Shown here piece after piece: positions 896 to 35,291 of a stretch of DNA of 64,000 nt. Source of the stretch: Patescibacteria group bacterium (GTDB lineage: Bacteria > Patescibacteriota > UBA1384 > 2-12-FULL-50-11); contig JBBUAP010000001.1 in NCBI GenBank assembly GCA_038058635.1, positions 384,771-448,770 on the forward strand, written 5' to 3'. Below the pieces are notes generated by a model that saw nothing but the letters and a program-made list of their open reading frames with translations, searched no databases and had not been told where the DNA came from. How positions within the stretch are numbered: the stretch's first letter is position 1; each line of letters opens with the position of its first letter. Position numbers and translations under genes: made by a program.

Positions 896-2626
896 ATGAA
901 AAACGAAGAATACGAAAAATCAGAGCTCTACAAAATCCGTCACACCACTTCGCATATATTGGCGATGGCGGCGCACGAGTTTGATCCAGAGGTGAAATTT
1001 GCGATTGGTCCGCCAATTGAGAGCGGGTTTTATTATGACTTTGAGTTCTCTAAACCTATTACCGACAGCGACCTGAAGACACTCGAAAAATCAATGTACA
1101 AGATCATCAATCAAAACTTCCCGGTGACGCACGAAGTTTTGAGTCGTGGCGCCGCCATCACCAAAATCAAAAAAACTGATCAACCGTATAAGCTCGAGCT
1201 AGCTGAAGATTTAGAAGACGACAAGCTTGGATTCTATAAGATTGATTGGTTTGAAGATCTCTGCAAAGGCCCGCATGTTAAATTGACCGGGGAAGTAAAG
1301 GCCTTCAAACTACTTAGCGTGGCCGGGGCTTACTGGCGCGGTGACGAGAAAAAAGCGATGCTAACCAGAGTTTATGGCACCGCTTTTGGCTCGAAGAAAG
1401 AGCTTGACGCTCATCTCGCCCAACTCGAAGAAGCCAAAAAACGCGACCACAAAAAGCTTGGGCCCCAACTCGATCTGTTTCTATTTTCCGATCTAGTCGG
1501 TGCTGGCTTGCCGCTCTGGACGCCCAAAGGCAATACCCTGCGGCTAATTCTAGACGACTATGTTTGGTCGCTTCGAGCCAAGAAGGGCTATCAAAAAGTG
1601 GAAATCCCCCATATTGCCAAGAGCGATCTCTACAAAAAATCTGGTCATTGGGACAAGTTCCAGGACGATTTAATGAAAATTGAAACACGCGAAGGTCACA
1701 CTTTTGTCTTGAAGCCGATGAACTGCCCTCACCACACCCAAATCTTCGCTCGAAAATCTTGGAGTTACCGCGAACTACCCCAGCGCTACGCCAATACAAC
1801 GATGGTTTATCGCGATGAGCAAACCGGCGAGTTAGCTGGTTTATCGCGCGTTCGTTCAATTACCCAAGATGATGCCCATGTTTTCTGCCGAGCCGATCAG
1901 GTCAAGGATGAGCTTCTGGCCGTTTGGGACATTGTCAGCGAGCTTTACGCTAAGGTTGGTTTCAGTGATCTGTCGGTCCGTTTGTCGTATAGCGACCCCG
2001 CCACTCCAGACAAGTACTTGGGCGAAGCTCGCGTTTGGCAGAAGGCCGAAGCTGAATTGGAGCAGCTGGCCAAGCAGAAGAAAGCCAAGTACGAAATTGC
2101 TCCGGGTGAAGCGGCCTTTTACGGTCCTAAGATTGATTTTATGGCTCGCGATTCGCTCGGGCGACAGTGGCAATTGGCCACCATTCAGCTCGACATGAAC
2201 CTACCCGAGCGATTTGATTTGCATTTCATTAACAGCGAAGGCAAAGAGGAGCAAGTGATTATGATCCACGCAGCCATTATGGGTTCGATCGAACGATTCT
2301 TGTCGGTCTTAATCGAACACTACGCTGGCGACTTCCCGCTTTGGTTAGCACCAGTCCAAGCCAAAATCCTGCCGATTAGCGAAAAGTTTGTCGATTACGG
2401 CCAAGCCGTCGCCGCCGAGCTGGAAAAATTAGGGGTTCGTTTCGAGCTCGACGACGCTTCGGAAACTCTGGGCAAACGCATACGTAATGCCGAAAACCAA
2501 AAAGTGCCCTTTATCTTAATCGTTGGCGAAAAAGAAGTTGCCGACAGAACCGTCACAATCCGTTCTCGCCACGAAGTTGAGCAAAAGACTGTCAAATTAA
2601 CCGAGCTTGTTAAGACTTTCGAATAG
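896..2626 (+). CDS. thrS: threonyl-tRNA synthetase (lacks N-terminal TGS domain)
   Basis: 576 aa. Begins at the N2/editing-domain motifs (RHTTSHILAMA, IGPPIESGFYYDF) and carries class II aaRS catalytic and anticodon-binding regions. There is an in-frame stop 24 nt upstream, so no TGS domain is encoded. Confidence 0.9.
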   Translation: MKNEEYEKSELYKIRHTTSHILAMAAHEFDPEVKFAIGPPIESGFYYDFEFSKPITDSDLKTLEKSMYKIINQNFPVTHEVLSRGAAITKIKKTDQPYKLELAEDLEDDKLGFYKIDWFEDLCKGPHVKLTGEVKAFKLLSVAGAYWRGDEKKAMLTRVYGTAFGSKKELDAHLAQLEEAKKRDHKKLGPQLDLFLFSDLVGAGLPLWTPKGNTLRLILDDYVWSLRAKKGYQKVEIPHIAKSDLYKKSGHWDKFQDDLMKIETREGHTFVLKPMNCPHHTQIFARKSWSYRELPQRYANTTMVYRDEQTGELAGLSRVRSITQDDAHVFCRADQVKDELLAVWDIVSELYAKVGFSDLSVRLSYSDPATPDKYLGEARVWQKAEAELEQLAKQKKAKYEIAPGEAAFYGPKIDFMARDSLGRQWQLATIQLDMNLPERFDLHFINSEGKEEQVIMIHAAIMGSIERFLSVLIEHYAGDFPLWLAPVQAKILPISEKFVDYGQAVAAELEKLGVRFELDDASETLGKRIRNAENQKVPFILIVGEKEVADRTVTIRSRHEVEQKTVKLTELVKTFE

Positions 2627-19334: not shown

Positions 19335-19913
19335 TTATTTTAAGTCGTATTTAGATAACAGTTTTTTGCATGTACCGTGTATTCCTAAGTGGAAAAATCC
19401 GACAGCTACCGGTTTAAAGACAATCGGAAACCCTAAAGGTATTTCTGTGATACCAATTCCTAATGTTATATGTGGATGATAATTTGAATACGCACTATTT
19501 TCTTCAAAATTATTAACCCAATCAACAAGAGAGCTTGATTCAGACATTTCAAAAAAGTTTTCTGATGTTACTGTGCCAGCATTGTGTTTAGTAATTAAAT
19601 CAAAGACAGTATTGTGTAAATTTTGAAGATATTCACTTACCTCAAGGCTAAAATGACTATATTTACTAGAGCCTAAAGAAGTTAAGGTAATTTCGGGCAT
19701 CTCAAAGCTTTCTAATAATGATCCCAATTCTTTTTTAAAGTCATTAACATTTTCCAAAAGTAAACTTCCCATACCTAAAGTGATATGTGGATTATAGCCA
19801 TCTTCAAAAGACACAAAATCTTTTTTATCAGACCCCTTATTACATTCCTTGCAAATATTATTTATCTTTTCTGGGAGTAATAACACAACATCTATAGCTA
19901 TTTTTTCTTGCAT
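19335..19913 (-). CDS. 2H phosphoesterase superfamily protein (LigT/ThpR-like 2',3'-cyclic phosphodiesterase / 2'-5' RNA ligase)
   Basis: Two H-x-T-x motifs (HITLGMG and HITLGIG) at the spacing of the 2H fold. The gene is conspicuously AT-rich compared with flanking DNA. Confidence 0.6.
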   Translation of the reverse strand: MQEKIAIDVVLLLPEKINNICKECNKGSDKKDFVSFEDGYNPHITLGMGSLLLENVNDFKKELGSLLESFEMPEITLTSLGSSKYSHFSLEVSEYLQNLHNTVFDLITKHNAGTVTSENFFEMSESSSLVDWVNNFEENSAYSNYHPHITLGIGITEIPLGFPIVFKPVAVGFFHLGIHGTCKKLLSKYDLK

Positions 19914-24545: not shown

Positions 24546-25919
24546 ATGAAAAAAGTTCGAGTCATCTACGACCCCATCTTGCGTCACAAAGTTAAGCCGG
24601 TGACGGTTTTTAACGACGAACTGAAAAAACTTTCTGAAGAAATGTTTTTAGTCATGCATAAAAATATCGGCATGGGCTTAGCGGCCAACCAGCTTGGAGT
24701 CGACCAGGACTTACTGGTGATTGAATATCGGCCTGTTAAAGACCGTGATGAAGATGGAGATCAAGACGGCGGAAAACCGATCGGCCCTCTCGTCCTCTGC
24801 AACACCAAAGTGATTAAAACCAGTCAAATCACCGAGACGATGAACGAGGGTTGTTTATCGCTGCCGGGCTTAGAACTGCCTGTCAATCGCCCGAGCGGCG
24901 TCATTGTCGAAGCTATGGACCTGACTGGTAAACCAGTAACCATTAAAGCCAAGGGGCTACTAGCCCGAATTTTACAGCACGAAGTCGACCATTTAGATGG
25001 CATACTATTCACCGATCGGGCGAGTGGCCTGAAGAATTTAAAAAATTACGCCGGCATGAAGATTGTTTTCTTTGGCTCGGACAATTTTTCTGTCCCAATT
25101 TTCCAAATACTCATTGAAAGCGGTTTGAATGTGATTGCCGCCGTGACCGAAACCGACAAACCGGCTGGCCGAGGCAACCAACTCACCATTACGCCCATCA
25201 AATCCGTTGCCACGGATGCCGGAATTGCGGTCGTCCAGCCCCAAACGAAAACGGAAATCATCGAGATTCTTCGTCAGCTCAAGCCAGATTTGATCGTGCT
25301 GGCTTCGTACGGCAAGATTTTGCCAGAAGAAGCTCTCATCATCCCCACTTACGGGGCGCTTAATGTCCACCCGTCACTTTTACCAAAATATCGTGGTGCT
25401 ACGCCGGTCCAATCGGCGATTTTAGCGGGTGAAAAGACAACTGGCGTGACGATTATGAAGATGAACGCCGGCGTTGATACGGGGGAGATTGTCGCTCAAT
25501 CAAAAACAGAACTTTCGAATGTGGAGACTTTTATCTCGCTTCGTGACCGACTCTCCCAACTAGGCGCTAAATTGCTAGTCGGCCAGCTGCCGCTTTACCT
25601 TTCTGGTACAGCCAACCTCCAGTTGCAAGGCAGTGACTCAACTCAAACCACAAAATTAGTTAAAGAAATGGGCGAGATCGATTGGACGCAGTCAGCCGAG
25701 TCAATCGACCGACAGATCCGCGCTCTCAATCCCTGGCCAGGGACTTTTACCTTTGTCGGCGACAAGCGACTCAAAATTCTGGAAGCCAGTTTGAACGGCG
25801 ATCGGCTCATACTCAAAACTGTCCAACTCGAAGGCAAAAATCCCACTGCCTGGCCTGAATTTGTCCGGGGCTACGAGCAACAGTTGAAAAATTGCTCCTG
25901 GTACGGTAAAATATCCTAA
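24546..25919 (+). CDS. def-fmt: fused peptide deformylase / methionyl-tRNA formyltransferase
   Basis: Residues 1-165 carry the Def motifs (GLAANQLGV, EGCLSLPG, HEVDHLDG). Residues 170-457 carry Fmt (MKIVFFGSDNFSVPIF.., SLLPKYRGATPVQSAIL, C-terminal domain). There is a single uninterrupted reading frame. Confidence 0.8.
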   Translation: MKKVRVIYDPILRHKVKPVTVFNDELKKLSEEMFLVMHKNIGMGLAANQLGVDQDLLVIEYRPVKDRDEDGDQDGGKPIGPLVLCNTKVIKTSQITETMNEGCLSLPGLELPVNRPSGVIVEAMDLTGKPVTIKAKGLLARILQHEVDHLDGILFTDRASGLKNLKNYAGMKIVFFGSDNFSVPIFQILIESGLNVIAAVTETDKPAGRGNQLTITPIKSVATDAGIAVVQPQTKTEIIEILRQLKPDLIVLASYGKILPEEALIIPTYGALNVHPSLLPKYRGATPVQSAILAGEKTTGVTIMKMNAGVDTGEIVAQSKTELSNVETFISLRDRLSQLGAKLLVGQLPLYLSGTANLQLQGSDSTQTTKLVKEMGEIDWTQSAESIDRQIRALNPWPGTFTFVGDKRLKILEASLNGDRLILKTVQLEGKNPTAWPEFVRGYEQQLKNCSWYGKIS

Positions 25920-32593: not shown

Positions 32594-32739
32594 TGAGTAT
32601 ATTTACGACTGCGCTCGAGCCTACTTTACCAAAAACTCCCAAACTAAGGAAGCCGCCCCGCCTTCGCCTCAATTCATCGAGAATCTTGCATTATGATTAA
32701 TACACCTGTCATCTAGTTGACTTTTATAAGCATTTTGCT

Positions 32740-34476
32740 ATGATAGCAGGGTATTTGAGTAATGGGTTAGGCAAAAATAATATGGCAACAATTAAACTAG
32801 CTGAAATAGCGAGAAAACTTGGAAAGTCTGCAACAGACATCTCCAGAGATACTGGTATCAATCGCAACACTATCAATGCCCTTATGAAAGGGTCTGTTGA
32901 AGATGTTAAGTTTTCGACACTAGAAAAGATTTGTAAAATTTACAATATTCAAATTTCAGACATATTAGACGATGTCGATGTTTTGAATAAACATCAGGCA
33001 AAATCAAAACAAAAAAATGTTCGCAAGTTATATAAGCAGGAAGGAGAGATAGTTCCCTTTACCTGCTGGCCTTGGGCACTCGTTGCGGGTTCATTTACCT
33101 TAAAGCGAGATGAGGAAATAATAGATTTTGGCCAGCTAGATTTGTATTTTAAAGGGGATTACGGCATTGGCTACTGGGACCTTAATTCTCTTAAAAACGT
33201 AGCAAGCACTTTTTACGCATTTTACTCTGATAAGGATAAGTACTCTAAATTGTACGGTAAATATTTATATTACTCCGCCGAGATTGAGGACATATACCTT
33301 GAATCACACGAAATCGTTTCTAGGGAGCTGGATGATGTACAGATTAGATCAATTTTTGAAAAATTAAAGTCCGCTTATAAGGGGTTCTGGGACTACAGTT
33401 TGTTTATTGACGCTTTTGATACGGGTGTTGATCAAGAAAGAATTAATCAAATTGCAAAAGAGAAAAACTTGGATAAAAAATCGGTGGAGGTTCTTACCAT
33501 GCCGGTGGAAATGACTTTTGCTGACGAAAGAAAATACGCGTTTTTGTCTCTTATCGAAGATGCTTCAATAAGTACTAAAGATGCTGAAAAGTTTTTGGGA
33601 AAAAATAAAGATGCCATAGAACAATATCGGAAAAAGTTCGATTACTACAAGTCAAATTACACTCACATCAAGCATATAACTTTAGAAGAGATGAAAGACG
33701 AAGCTAACAAATATCTTGAGGATAAATCAGTTTTCAAAGAAGAATTCAAAAAGCTTGAGCAATACGAAAAAGACAAACATAGAGAGATCGACAAAGTACT
33801 CAAAAAACTACAGCTAAAAGAAAATCCGTTGTGGTTCTTTAGTAATTTGACTTACTGGAGAGAGCATCGAAAGAAAGTAAACTTAATGGGCATTCATGCC
33901 TTAGATTTCATTCTGTCTGCAATAGAAGACAAGACGGGCATACAAAAAAAATATTTACGTTATTTAAGTTTCGACGAGGTTGATAATGTTATCAAGGGAT
34001 TAATCCCAAGCTCCACATTGGAAAATCGATATAATGAAGGTGTTTTGATTACTATTCTCGGTAATTCATATAAAATATACGAGGGGGCAGAGGCGAACTC
34101 CATTAAAAAAGATTTAGAGAATATATTGTCGGGAGAAACGAATAAGACAAAGGTTATCACCGGCCAAACTGCTTCTCAAGGATATGCTAAGGGCATAGCG
34201 CGCATCATTCTTACCCAAGAAGATTTTTCTCGTTTTAAAGATGGCGAAGTCTTGGTTACGAGCATGACAAGACCAGAATTCGTGCCACTGATGAAAAAAT
34301 CGGCAGCCATTGTCACTAATGAGGGGGGAATTACTTGTCATGCCGCTATTGTTTCAAGAGAATTGGGAAAGCCGTGTATTATTGGAACAAAAGATGCAAC
34401 TCAGATGATAAAAGATGGCGATATGGTAGAGGTTCGAGCTAATCACGGTACAGTAAGAATATTAGAAACCAAATAA
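32740..34476 (+). CDS. HTH-XRE domain protein fused to a C-terminal PEP-utilizing-enzyme mobile (phosphohistidine swivel) domain
   Basis: N-terminal XRE-type HTH (IKLAEIARKLGKSATDISRDTGINRNTINALMKG), a roughly 350-aa K/E-rich middle region of unknown fold, and a C-terminal swivel domain (GIARIILTQEDFSRFKDGEVLVTSMTRPEFVPLMKKSAAIVTNEGGITCHAAIVSRELGKPCIIG). Strongly AT-rich relative to the window. Alternative start at 32782. Confidence 0.6.
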   Translation: MIAGYLSNGLGKNNMATIKLAEIARKLGKSATDISRDTGINRNTINALMKGSVEDVKFSTLEKICKIYNIQISDILDDVDVLNKHQAKSKQKNVRKLYKQEGEIVPFTCWPWALVAGSFTLKRDEEIIDFGQLDLYFKGDYGIGYWDLNSLKNVASTFYAFYSDKDKYSKLYGKYLYYSAEIEDIYLESHEIVSRELDDVQIRSIFEKLKSAYKGFWDYSLFIDAFDTGVDQERINQIAKEKNLDKKSVEVLTMPVEMTFADERKYAFLSLIEDASISTKDAEKFLGKNKDAIEQYRKKFDYYKSNYTHIKHITLEEMKDEANKYLEDKSVFKEEFKKLEQYEKDKHREIDKVLKKLQLKENPLWFFSNLTYWREHRKKVNLMGIHALDFILSAIEDKTGIQKKYLRYLSFDEVDNVIKGLIPSSTLENRYNEGVLITILGNSYKIYEGAEANSIKKDLENILSGETNKTKVITGQTASQGYAKGIARIILTQEDFSRFKDGEVLVTSMTRPEFVPLMKKSAAIVTNEGGITCHAAIVSRELGKPCIIGTKDATQMIKDGDMVEVRANHGTVRILETK

Positions 34477-34551
34477 ATATGGAAAATCCAGAAATATTTT
34501 CGTAACCAGGCACTCTAAAAGCCTAATGGCGACGACCTGGAATGCAAGTAG

Positions 34552-34900
34552 TATCTCGGTGTCTCTGAACAGGGCATAGAATTAGCCAGGGAACGCACAG
34601 AAGGAATTGCTTTCTCTGTTCACCCGGTAACACAAGATAAAAACCAACTCATCATTGAGGCAGGATTTGGACTCGAAGAAGCCATAGTTTCGGGACAAAT
34701 TACGCTGGACAGCTGTTCGTAGAAAAACAACTGCGATGGATCATTGACATCAATATCAACGAGCAAGAAAGAGTTTTATATAGAAAAGAAAATGGTGGTA
34801 AAGAATGGATAAATTTTGGAGAAAAAGGCCAACAACAGGTATTAGATGAAACACAGATCTTAGAACTTTCGGAAATTGTCCTCGTATCGAAAAGTCTAGT
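34552..34900 (+). pseudogene. frameshifted, truncated remnant of a PPDK_N (PEP/pyruvate-binding ATP-grasp) domain gene
   Basis: Frame A (34552-34719) encodes GIAFSVHPVTQDKNQLIIEAGFGLEEAIVSGQITLDS, matching the PPDK_N consensus SGVMFT.DP.TG...I.A.WGLGE.VV.G.V.PD. After a 1-nt frame change, frame B continues FVEKQLRWIIDININEQERVLYRKENGGKEWINFGEKGQQQVLDETQILELSEIVL. There is no start, an internal stop, and no C-terminal end. Confidence 0.4.
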
Positions 34901-34904
34901 TCTT

Positions 34905-34968
34905 GAGCGGGTGAAGGGAATCGAACCCTCGTCTCAACCTTGCCCGTCCTCCGCAGTAGCAGACACAG
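34905..34968 (-). other. tRNA-like 3' fragment (T-arm + acceptor 3' strand without matching 5' half)
   Basis: The reverse complement ends GAGGG-TTCGATT-CCCTT-CACCCGC-T, a canonical T-arm and acceptor strand. Only 64 nt separate it from tRNA-Gly, and no complementary 5' acceptor (GCGGGTG) exists. Confidence 0.3.
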
Positions 34969-35039
34969 AGCGGGATACGAGAATCGAACTCGCGTATCTT
35001 GCTTGGGAAGCAAGCGCTCTACCATTGAGCTAATCCCGC
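34969..35039 (-). tRNA. tRNA-Gly (anticodon CCC)
   Basis: The reverse complement folds as GCGGGAT-TA-GCTC-AATGGTA-GAGC-G-CTTGC-TT-CCC-AA-GCAAG-ATAC-GCGAG-TTCGATT-CTCGT-ATCCCGC-T, with discriminator U73 as expected for Gly. Confidence 0.8.
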
Positions 35040-35291
35040 GCTGCAACTGCTACGGAGGGCGGGGGAAGGTTATTCGATTGTGGCTACGATGAAAGCCATA
35101 ATCGAACAATCACCCTCGATCAAATCCCGTCGGCTTGCCGAGGGGTGCCGAGGGGTGATTGATATTCTGCCATTGAACCACACCCGCAATTTGTAACCCT
35201 GTTACCTTACATGATTGTACCAGGCGGGTAAACTCACGGTGTAGTAGCGCGCTTTCTCTTACCTTCATTTTGCGTTACGCTGAAAGTAATC

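Follow-up and report, generated by a model that had tools for sequence, protein, structure and literature searches.

Architecture of the locus

The 64-kb stretch of a Patescibacteria group bacterium analysed here (referred to as the window) contains, on its forward strand at positions 32740–34476, an open reading frame (ORF) whose product combines an N-terminal XRE/Cro-C1-type helix-turn-helix (HTH) domain, a middle region and a C-terminal phosphoenolpyruvate (PEP)-utilizer phosphohistidine swivel domain, an arrangement denoted HTH–X–swivel below. The gene is followed by two gene remnants and a tRNA gene. The ORF was confirmed in the window, and the domain order put forward in the original prediction was recovered by Pfam, which matched the 578-residue reading, as first called, to HTH_26 at residues 19–79 (E = 4e-14) and to PEP-utilizers at residues 499–570 (E = 9e-25), with no Pfam match between the two. 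No curated model of Pfam, NCBIfam, PADLOC or PHROGs covers the protein, and membership of a known defence or phage family was rejected, as PADLOC and PHROGs gave domain-level matches only.

The true start is almost certainly the ATG at 32782, giving a 564-residue protein, because the homologues all open with M-x-x-[IV]-K-L at this point, the public annotation (P0001, ‘PEP-utilizing enzyme’) has 564 residues, and the upstream ATG at 32740 falls within the −10 box of a promoter-like site. Residue numbers refer to the 564-residue protein unless the 578-residue reading is named. The promoter-like site (32717–32744, forward strand) consists of TTGACT, a 16-nucleotide spacer and TATGAT with a TG extension, matching at 10 of 12 positions. 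Just 5′ of its −35 box, 88 bp upstream of the start codon, lies a degenerate copy of an operator palindrome, TGATTAATACACCTGTCA (32694–32711, forward strand), described below.

All domains of the protein are encoded on the forward strand. The HTH domain (32782–32979, residues 1–66), which scores above the HTH_26 family threshold of Pfam and is placed at residues 1–61 by AlphaFold2 (AF2), is joined by a probably flexible linker (32980–33018, residues 67–79) to the middle domain (33019–34146, residues 80–455, 376 amino acids). The predicted local distance difference test (pLDDT) score of the AF2 model is below 50 for residues 65–78. The swivel domain, together with the stop codon, occupies 34147–34476 (residues 456–564; PF00391, E = 9e-25; motif GGITCHAAIVSR); its loop NEGGITCHAAIVSR (GGITCH) contains the phosphohistidine candidate His520, encoded at 34339–34341.

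The closest relative of the protein, P0002 (83% identity), is encoded at a locus termed L080, where, 3 bp past the HTH–X–swivel gene, there is a gene for a 285-residue protein (p285), with an intact 320-residue PPDK_N (ATP-grasp) gene (Pfam E = 1.6e-96) next in line. In blastn, window positions 32664–34610 align with L080 3–1952 (80%) and positions 34603–34893 with L080 3221–3513 (76%). The first block ends in a remnant of the first ~45 codons of p285 (34479 to ~34606, forward strand; blastn and tblastn to L080 1819–1952), which carries two 1-bp deletions and stop codons. The second is a remnant of the stand-alone PPDK_N gene (34603–34893, forward strand), covering residues ~191–284 of 320 (tblastn to L080 PPDK_N, 92% and 75%), with one frameshift (a 1-bp indel), stop codons, and the N-terminal 190 and last ~35 codons gone. 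The PPDK_N-like pseudogene noted in the original prediction is therefore present, but it is one of two remnants, the p285 piece having been overlooked. The blocks imply that a single deletion of ~1.27 kb, placed by the junction alignment between L080 1953 and 3220 at imperfect microhomology, joined p285 codon ~45 to PPDK_N codon ~191. Judged from this alignment, one event removed most of p285 and two thirds of the ATP-grasp gene, leaving the HTH–X–swivel gene intact and orphaned. A tRNA-Gly(CCC) gene (34968–35039, reverse strand; ARAGORN, Rfam 72.5 bits) forms the right boundary of the decayed cassette.

The window gene is under purifying selection. Its 564 codons are without lesion and keep every invariant residue, and the ratio of non-synonymous to synonymous substitution rates (dN/dS) against L080 is 0.07 at dS ~1.25, with values of 0.04–0.10 for the individual domains (0.077 for the HTH). 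The PPDK_N remnant has a dN/dS of 0.13, which indicates that the deletion was recent relative to the split from L080. 

Fold of the middle and swivel domains

The AF2 model of the protein, computed with 57 homologues, reached a pLDDT of 91.7 and a predicted template modelling score of 0.83. Past the linker it is made up of a small α/β unit (residues 83–133), an all-helical body (134–420), a β-hairpin and the swivel (458–562). The top six Foldseek matches in the PDB are all structures of a rifampin phosphotransferase (RPH), RPH-Lm, with E values of 5e-12 to 2e-10; the matches after these start at 4e-6, about six orders weaker, and have query template modelling scores (TMq) of at most 0.18, consistent with similarity to the swivel only. 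RPH is the only PDB fold match that spans both the middle and the swivel domains, so that the middle region, originally taken to be uncharacterised, is predicted to have the fold of the rifampin (RIF)-binding domain of RPH and matches no other. Profile and NCBIfam alignments reach from the swivel into that domain (residues 386/390–561 against RPH 699–866). A profile of the middle domain alone found no meaningful match among PDB sequences, and the homology to the RIF-binding domain consequently rests on structure and partial alignments.

Three motifs characterize the middle domain of the HTH-bearing subfamily: Y84-K-Q86-E, F208-IDxFDxGxD217 and W359-R360-E361-x-R363-K364. The Y-K-Q-E and R-E-x-R-K motifs are nearly invariant in this subfamily, and [D/E]361-x-R363-K364 is kept across the wider family. 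Such strong conservation of pocket motifs among the HTH-bearing members predicts that they share a ligand. In RPH, the second phosphotransfer needs Arg666-Glu667, and Lys670 and Gln337 belong to the hydrogen-bond network of these two residues (PMC4844700). The spacing of R360-E361-x-x-K364 is identical to that of Arg666-Glu667...Lys670, and R360, E361 and K364 are candidate equivalents of these three residues.

In RPH-Lm (PDB 5FBS/5FBT/5FBU, 5HV1; PMC4844700), as in the window protein, an all-helical substrate-binding domain precedes a C-terminal swivel with its histidine. RPH's ATP-grasp domain, at the N-terminus, has no counterpart in the window protein, which lacks PPDK_N and has the XRE HTH in that place. 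The two share 15–17% identity, with sequence similarity confined to the final ~70 residues of the binding domain and the part that follows them, and the curated RPH models score the window protein far below their cutoffs (RIF_Ptrans_rph, 72 bits versus 999; RPH, 51.6 versus 1700). The swivel loop is of the PEP-synthase type (GGITCH), in contrast to the Met-containing RPH type, and nothing links the window protein to rifamycins.

Sequence similarity of the swivel is greatest to PEP synthases (phmmer E = 1e-26 and 1e-24 for 9dae and 8a8e, against 1e-16 for RPH). PEP synthases and pyruvate phosphate dikinase (PPDK) also share PPDK_N as the partner ATP-grasp domain. They differ in their PEP/pyruvate-binding TIM barrel, which the window protein lacks, in domain order and in not being split. 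By Pfam and NCBIfam the middle region is neither a standard PPDK_N nor a PEP-utilizers_C domain, either of which would have made the protein an ordinary member of that group.

The split design itself is already known. Two-component RPH-like dikinases form a subfamily recognized only recently, and for aromatic catabolism only (PMC12167813). In HpeHI, HpeH is the substrate-binding/swivel component and HpeI a separate ATP-grasp protein, as in the relatives PpsAB (phenylphosphate synthase) and CreHI (PMC12167813). The window family shares with them the split design with a separate ~320–340-residue ATP-grasp protein encoded nearby, the swivel histidine that is essential in HpeHI-type dikinases, and RPH as the sole full-length structural neighbour, as described for HpeH (PMC12167813). 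The HTH fusion, the associated operator and the histidine-phosphatase-fold partner distinguish it from HpeH and PpsA. So does its setting, in CPR (candidate phyla radiation) bacteria and often with highly divergent paralogue arrays, in contrast to the aromatic-catabolism clusters that hold HpeHI, PpsAB and CreHI. The PpsA/HpeH-like clade has a mutual identity of about 45% (PMC12167813). The PpsA-like protein P0119 matches only 18% of the window query, the middle domain has no significant PpsA-like sequence similarity, and PRK08296 models, which are PpsA/HpeH-like, match the window swivel only (66–91 bits versus cutoffs of 578–730). By these sequence comparisons the window protein belongs neither to the RPH family nor to the PpsA/HpeH clade nor to the PEP synthases. 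The HTH-fused form of two-component small-molecule dikinases is new: the literature searched holds no description of an HTH–swivel fusion or of the CPR and DPANN arrays described below.

The family, its partners and a conserved operator

The architecture, noted as unusual in the original prediction, is no isolated case: it belongs to a conserved CPR family, with ~120 clusters at 35–83% identity, nearly all from CPR metagenome bins. A metagenome scan with the window protein alone found no relatives, and 23 loci were obtained when the scan was repeated with an N-terminal alignment; the neighbourhood counts below refer to roughly 30 loci with context. Same-strand, HTH-less middle-plus-swivel paralogues flank the gene in L006, L011, L013/14, L023, L082, L086–L090, L094, L096 and L105–L107. 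Intact pairs with PPDK_N, the search for which had been suggested at the outset, exist in L080 and in seven further loci, where a stand-alone gene for a ~315-residue PPDK_N protein lies within 6 kb (L007, L086, L087, L096 and L105–L107); the window retains only the remnant. A histidine-phosphatase gene, of the His_Phos_1 or the p285 family, is adjacent in L007, L011, L023, L089, L080 and L105–L107. Downstream genes follow on the same strand at 3–46 bp, a spacing consistent with operons.

The p285 family comprises 42 clusters, all of unnamed CPR proteins, in which R11, H12, R67 and H220 are invariant. The L080 copy has no Pfam or NCBIfam match and falls below the Pfam His_Phos_1 threshold, a p285-type copy in L107 gives a weak His_Phos_1 match, and BLASTP gave no significant alignment between p285 and a His_Phos_1 protein from a neighbouring gene. 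The AF2 model of p285 (pLDDT 93.3) returned members of the histidine phosphatase superfamily as all of its top 50 Foldseek matches, the uppermost being enzymes that act on small phospho-esters. On the evidence of this model, p285 has a histidine-phosphatase-superfamily fold; with dPGM, PspA, CobC and SixA it shares this fold and the invariant R-H...R...H catalytic set, and it has about 80 extra residues.

HTH-less relatives also form head-to-tail arrays, with up to 13 middle-plus-swivel genes (~450–520 residues each) in 22 kb (loci including L046, L047, L036, L067, L065, L029, L009 and L050), in CPR bacteria and in DPANN archaea (Woesearchaeota, Micrarchaeota, Nanoarchaeota and Iainarchaeum). 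Their middle domains are highly divergent, 274 of them falling into 188 clusters at 38% identity. By comparison, there is never more than one PPDK_N gene per fetched stretch, and the stand-alone PPDK_N proteins are 71–86% identical across the best 120 clusters (7,933 matches at E ≤ 1e-20). From these sequences, it looks as if a single conserved ATP-grasp subunit serves the many diversified substrate modules of an array. Other fusions occur: P0006 (938 residues) has an HTH, two tandem middle domains and a swivel, and P0379 (379 residues) has HTH_3 fused to PPDK_N rather than to the swivel subunit. ORFs of 1,605–1,994 residues chain middle, swivel and PPDK_N modules (L062 247–6230, L059 3015–7967, L063 1–4953 and L106 7744–12561), and are either genuine giant dikinases or read-through of adjoining genes.

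The upstream regions of HTH–X–swivel genes have in common an 18-bp palindrome, TGACTAGT-NN-ACTAGTCA, with the family consensus TGACTAGTNNACTAGTCA found at −86 to −93 in ~20 independent loci. At up to three mismatches, 25 sites are present in the 1.49 Mb of fetched loci, compared with 6–10 sites in total in shuffled sequence, and 20 of the 25 (21 if L098 is counted) are upstream of an HTH-type gene, at a distance of no more than 250 bp. The sites cluster at −86 to −93, immediately 5′ of a TTGACA box, and between the −10 box and the ATG, at −27 to −29; the two positions are denoted O1 and O2. Their half-site centres are 10 bp apart, which fits the expectation for a dimeric HTH protein. The degenerate copy in the window matches the L080 copy (at −89) in position, and the O1/−35/−10 arrangement of the window promoter recurs in homologous loci. 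Because the palindrome occurs at −90 and −28 of HTH-type genes and almost nowhere else, the HTH–X–swivel protein probably controls its own operon through it; the suggestion that the protein is a regulator, made before any relatives were known, gains strong support from this conserved operator at the family promoters. The recognition-helix motif TGINRNT is nearly invariant in the family, with T24, G25, N27, R28, N29 and T30 invariant or nearly so. Different palindromes, TGCATAGTATACTATGCA, GACTGTTAAAACAGTC and AGCATATTTAAATATGCT, occupy the same position upstream of the HTH-type genes of L085, L087, L106 and L107, and the recognition helices of L085 and L087 read NRNS instead of NRNT; operator and HTH may be co-evolving, to judge from these variants.

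His520 is nearly invariant, and the histidine motif, the conservation of which the original prediction had proposed to check, is kept in ~88% of homologues. The histidine or the GG loop is lost in 10 of ~83 family members, in at least three differently mutated groups, all of which have kept their HTH and middle domain. Locus data, available for six such members, place every one of them directly upstream of at least one HTH-less paralogue (with an intact swivel in four cases), and the L023 and L088 members stand at the head of arrays of six or seven paralogues. These sequences point to a regulator in which an enzyme, or a former one, serves as the sensor.

Candidate mechanism and alternatives

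Taken together, we favour, with some reserve, a reading in which the protein is the substrate-binding and phosphohistidine-carrier half of a split RPH-like dikinase to which an HTH has been added, acting as an autoregulatory trigger enzyme or sensor. The enzymatic part of this reading agrees with the original prediction of a split RPH-like phosphotransferase half with a decayed ATP-grasp partner, and is in keeping with the RPH fold, with the intact PPDK_N gene two genes downstream in L080 and with the 1.27-kb deletion. We infer that the protein binds DNA and regulates its own operon, that the phosphate reaches it from the ATP-grasp partner, that a small-molecule substrate exists, and that DNA binding responds to ligand or phosphorylation. 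The separate ~315-residue PPDK_N protein would phosphorylate His520 of the swivel from ATP, using, by analogy with RPH, PpsAB and HpeHI, the β-phosphate and releasing AMP and inorganic phosphate (PMC4844700, PMC12167813). The swivel would then dock on the RPH-type middle domain, whose R-E-x-R-K/Y-K-Q-E site would hand the phosphate on to a small molecule bound there. Through its HTH, a dimer would bind the O1 and O2 palindromes (at about −90 and −28) and autoregulate an operon whose other genes encode the histidine-phosphatase-fold enzyme, the ATP-grasp protein and, often, additional HTH-less paralogues. Ligand occupancy of the middle domain, the phospho-state of the swivel, or both, would set DNA binding, and the histidine-phosphatase-fold enzyme would have either the phosphorylated product or the phospho-protein as its substrate.

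PutA, BirA, PRD-containing MtlR and LicT, and EI-Ntr/PtsP are trigger enzymes or phosphotransferase-controlled regulators, through which metabolic state sets transcription. The window family would share with them the combination of an enzyme or phospho-carrier with a DNA-binding or sensor domain in one polypeptide. It differs in that homology does not extend beyond the swivel (EI family) and in that the proposed phospho-donor is an ATP-grasp dikinase subunit, not PEP or HPr.

Several observations weigh against the favoured reading. The middle domain resembles the RIF-binding domain at the level of fold only, and equating R360, E361 and K364 with RPH residues 666, 667 and 670 requires an indel of ~5 residues relative to the sequence alignment. 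The 14-residue low-confidence linker of the AF2 model offers no obvious rigid path for allostery. The HTH is dispensable for the core function, since a few HTH-less relatives exist at 44–63% identity (for example, in L009 and L010). Four loci have the HTH–X–swivel gene alone, with no partner within 8 kb (L001, L002, L003/L081 and L008), and the pairing of kinase and phosphatase within an operon could point to something besides substrate phosphorylation. In the window itself, the operator copy has four mismatches to the consensus with no clear second site (O2), and no intact PPDK_N or paralogue is found within the 64 kb, so that the proposed mechanism may not operate in this genome. For the 495,617-bp contig that holds the window, no PPDK_N entry is present among the best 120 PPDK_N clusters.

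The best-surviving alternative, possible but distinctly less probable, is a pure phospho-switch without a small-molecule substrate, in which the ATP-grasp protein would be a histidine kinase, His520 the receiver and the phosphatase the resetting enzyme, with the middle domain as a scaffold relaying to the HTH. The recurrent trio of HTH–X–swivel, histidine-phosphatase-fold and PPDK_N genes would suit such a switch, which would avoid the futile cycle otherwise risked when one operon encodes both a kinase and a phosphatase; the swivel motif, moreover, is of the PEP-synthase type, including the Thr two residues ahead of the His (PMC12167813). The histidine phosphatase superfamily also offers a precedent on each side. 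SixA-type enzymes dephosphorylate phospho-His proteins, whereas many enzymes of the superfamily act on small phospho-esters, and it is these that head the structural matches of p285. Against a switch of this kind, the nearly invariant R-E-x-R-K and Y-K-Q-E motifs resemble the phosphotransfer site of RPH, and the HTH-less paralogues that form large arrays have the appearance of enzymes whose substrate pockets have diversified. The members that have lost the histidine while retaining the middle domain and the HTH further indicate that phosphorylation is not indispensable for the regulator role. In its broadest form the idea would amount to a new kind of CPR histidine-phosphorylation signalling, with the ATP-grasp subunit charging the swivel histidine of a sensor/DNA-binding protein and the histidine-phosphatase-fold enzyme resetting it, a proposal that we regard as speculative. 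If true, three proteins would make up a switch with no relation to classical two-component systems, in which the HTH–X–swivel protein would serve as response regulator, and such a switch could be the master control of the hyperdiverse split-dikinase paralogue arrays in CPR and DPANN genomes.

It is unlikely that the window gene is a functionless relic, intact in this genome only because the deletion was recent. Its partner genes are deleted and frameshifted, its operator is degenerate, no PPDK_N or paralogue lies within the window, and the dN/dS of the PPDK_N remnant is consistent with a recent deletion. Nevertheless, the 564-codon ORF is without lesion and retains all invariant residues, and stand-alone copies with good operators occur in at least four other genomes, so that an orphan copy is not necessarily dead.

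Still more doubtful is an enzyme subunit carrying the HTH as a passenger, for dimerization or non-specific nucleoid association, with the palindrome bound by another factor. The HTH-less close relatives and the flexible linker between the HTH and the remainder would be expected of such a protein. However, genes that carry the HTH are essentially the only ones with the palindrome upstream, where its positions are fixed; residues of the recognition helix are invariant or nearly so, the HTH is conserved at a dN/dS of 0.077, catalytically dead members keep the HTH, and a separate HTH_3–PPDK_N fusion exists (P0379). Finally, an ordinary PEP synthase or PPDK misread from the sequence, as the automatic annotation of several homologues as ‘phosphoenolpyruvate synthase/pyruvate phosphate dikinase’ would have it, can be rejected, given the lack of PPDK_N and PEP-utilizers_C, the C-terminal rather than central swivel, the RIF-binding-domain fold of the middle domain and an NCBIfam PEP_synth score of 128 bits (cutoff 740) that stems from the swivel only.

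The split RPH-like dikinase design is thus widespread in CPR bacteria and DPANN archaea. Under the favoured reading, one of its branches has turned into a DNA-binding protein with a recognizable operator, providing a concrete candidate regulator–operator pair in organisms with almost no characterized transcriptional regulation. It would also be a possible example of an enzyme turned sensor, and the independent losses of the phosphohistidine point the same way. The automatic annotation as PEP synthase/PPDK could suggest a gluconeogenic capacity in metabolic reconstructions of CPR and DPANN organisms.

Composition, mobility and further observations

The G+C content (GC) of the gene is 0.363 (0.36 at third codon positions), compared with 0.487 in the remaining window. 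This low GC had been read as a sign of recent acquisition; the composition is real, but recency does not follow, as the low GC is shared with L080 at dS ~1.25 and most family members lie below their flanks. In the window as in L080, the GC of the cassette lies 10–17 points under that of its flanks, which hold different genes at the two loci. Mobility of the cassette, which the tRNA-Gly gene and tRNA-like fragments abut, is plausible. 

A 68-bp segment just 5′ of the cassette (window 32595–32662) matches, inverted and at 79%, a segment just 3′ of the intact cassette (L080 3820–3887), and the L080 and L105 contigs both end ~120–130 bp upstream of the HTH–X–swivel gene; inverted repeats that flank a mobile cassette and break assemblies would fit both observations. 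In L107, a serine recombinase gene (1139–2499, reverse strand; Resolvase and Zn_ribbon_recom) adjoins a cluster of PPDK_N, swivel, X–swivel, His_Phos and HTH–X–swivel genes, an arrangement that hints at mobility.

Around the tRNA-Gly gene, a tRNA 3′-half-like piece with the T-arm GAGGGTTCGATTCCCTTC and the acceptor CACCCGC (34905–34963, reverse strand) abuts the PPDK_N remnant, and a 5′-half-like piece (GCGGGTG and D-arm) with the complementary acceptor strand lies ~200 bp off, beyond the tRNA-Gly gene, at ~35160–35186 (reverse strand); a hairpin is present at 35069–35112. The tRNA-like fragments were called neither by ARAGORN, in its intron and tmRNA modes, nor by Rfam, and may be what is left of a disrupted tRNA or the scar of an integration event. 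TrmB-family regulator genes occur near the stand-alone HTH–X–swivel genes of the unrelated loci L001 (14913–15677) and L002 (9833–10573 and 16536–17719), which may be coincidence.

An operator-like site at window position 24922 was rejected as a regulon member, since it lies inside a def–fmt coding region and within chance expectation. At 24546–25919 (forward strand), a 457-residue ORF is, by eye, an apparent fusion of an N-terminal peptide deformylase (EGCLS...HExDH-like motif) with methionyl-tRNA formyltransferase. The second low-GC spot of the window, the 19–20-kb bin (GC 0.356), contains a gene at 19335–19913 (reverse strand) for a 192-residue protein in which the H-x-T-L-G motif occurs twice (NPHITLG and HPHITLG) and which looks, by eye, 2H phosphoesterase/LigT-like.

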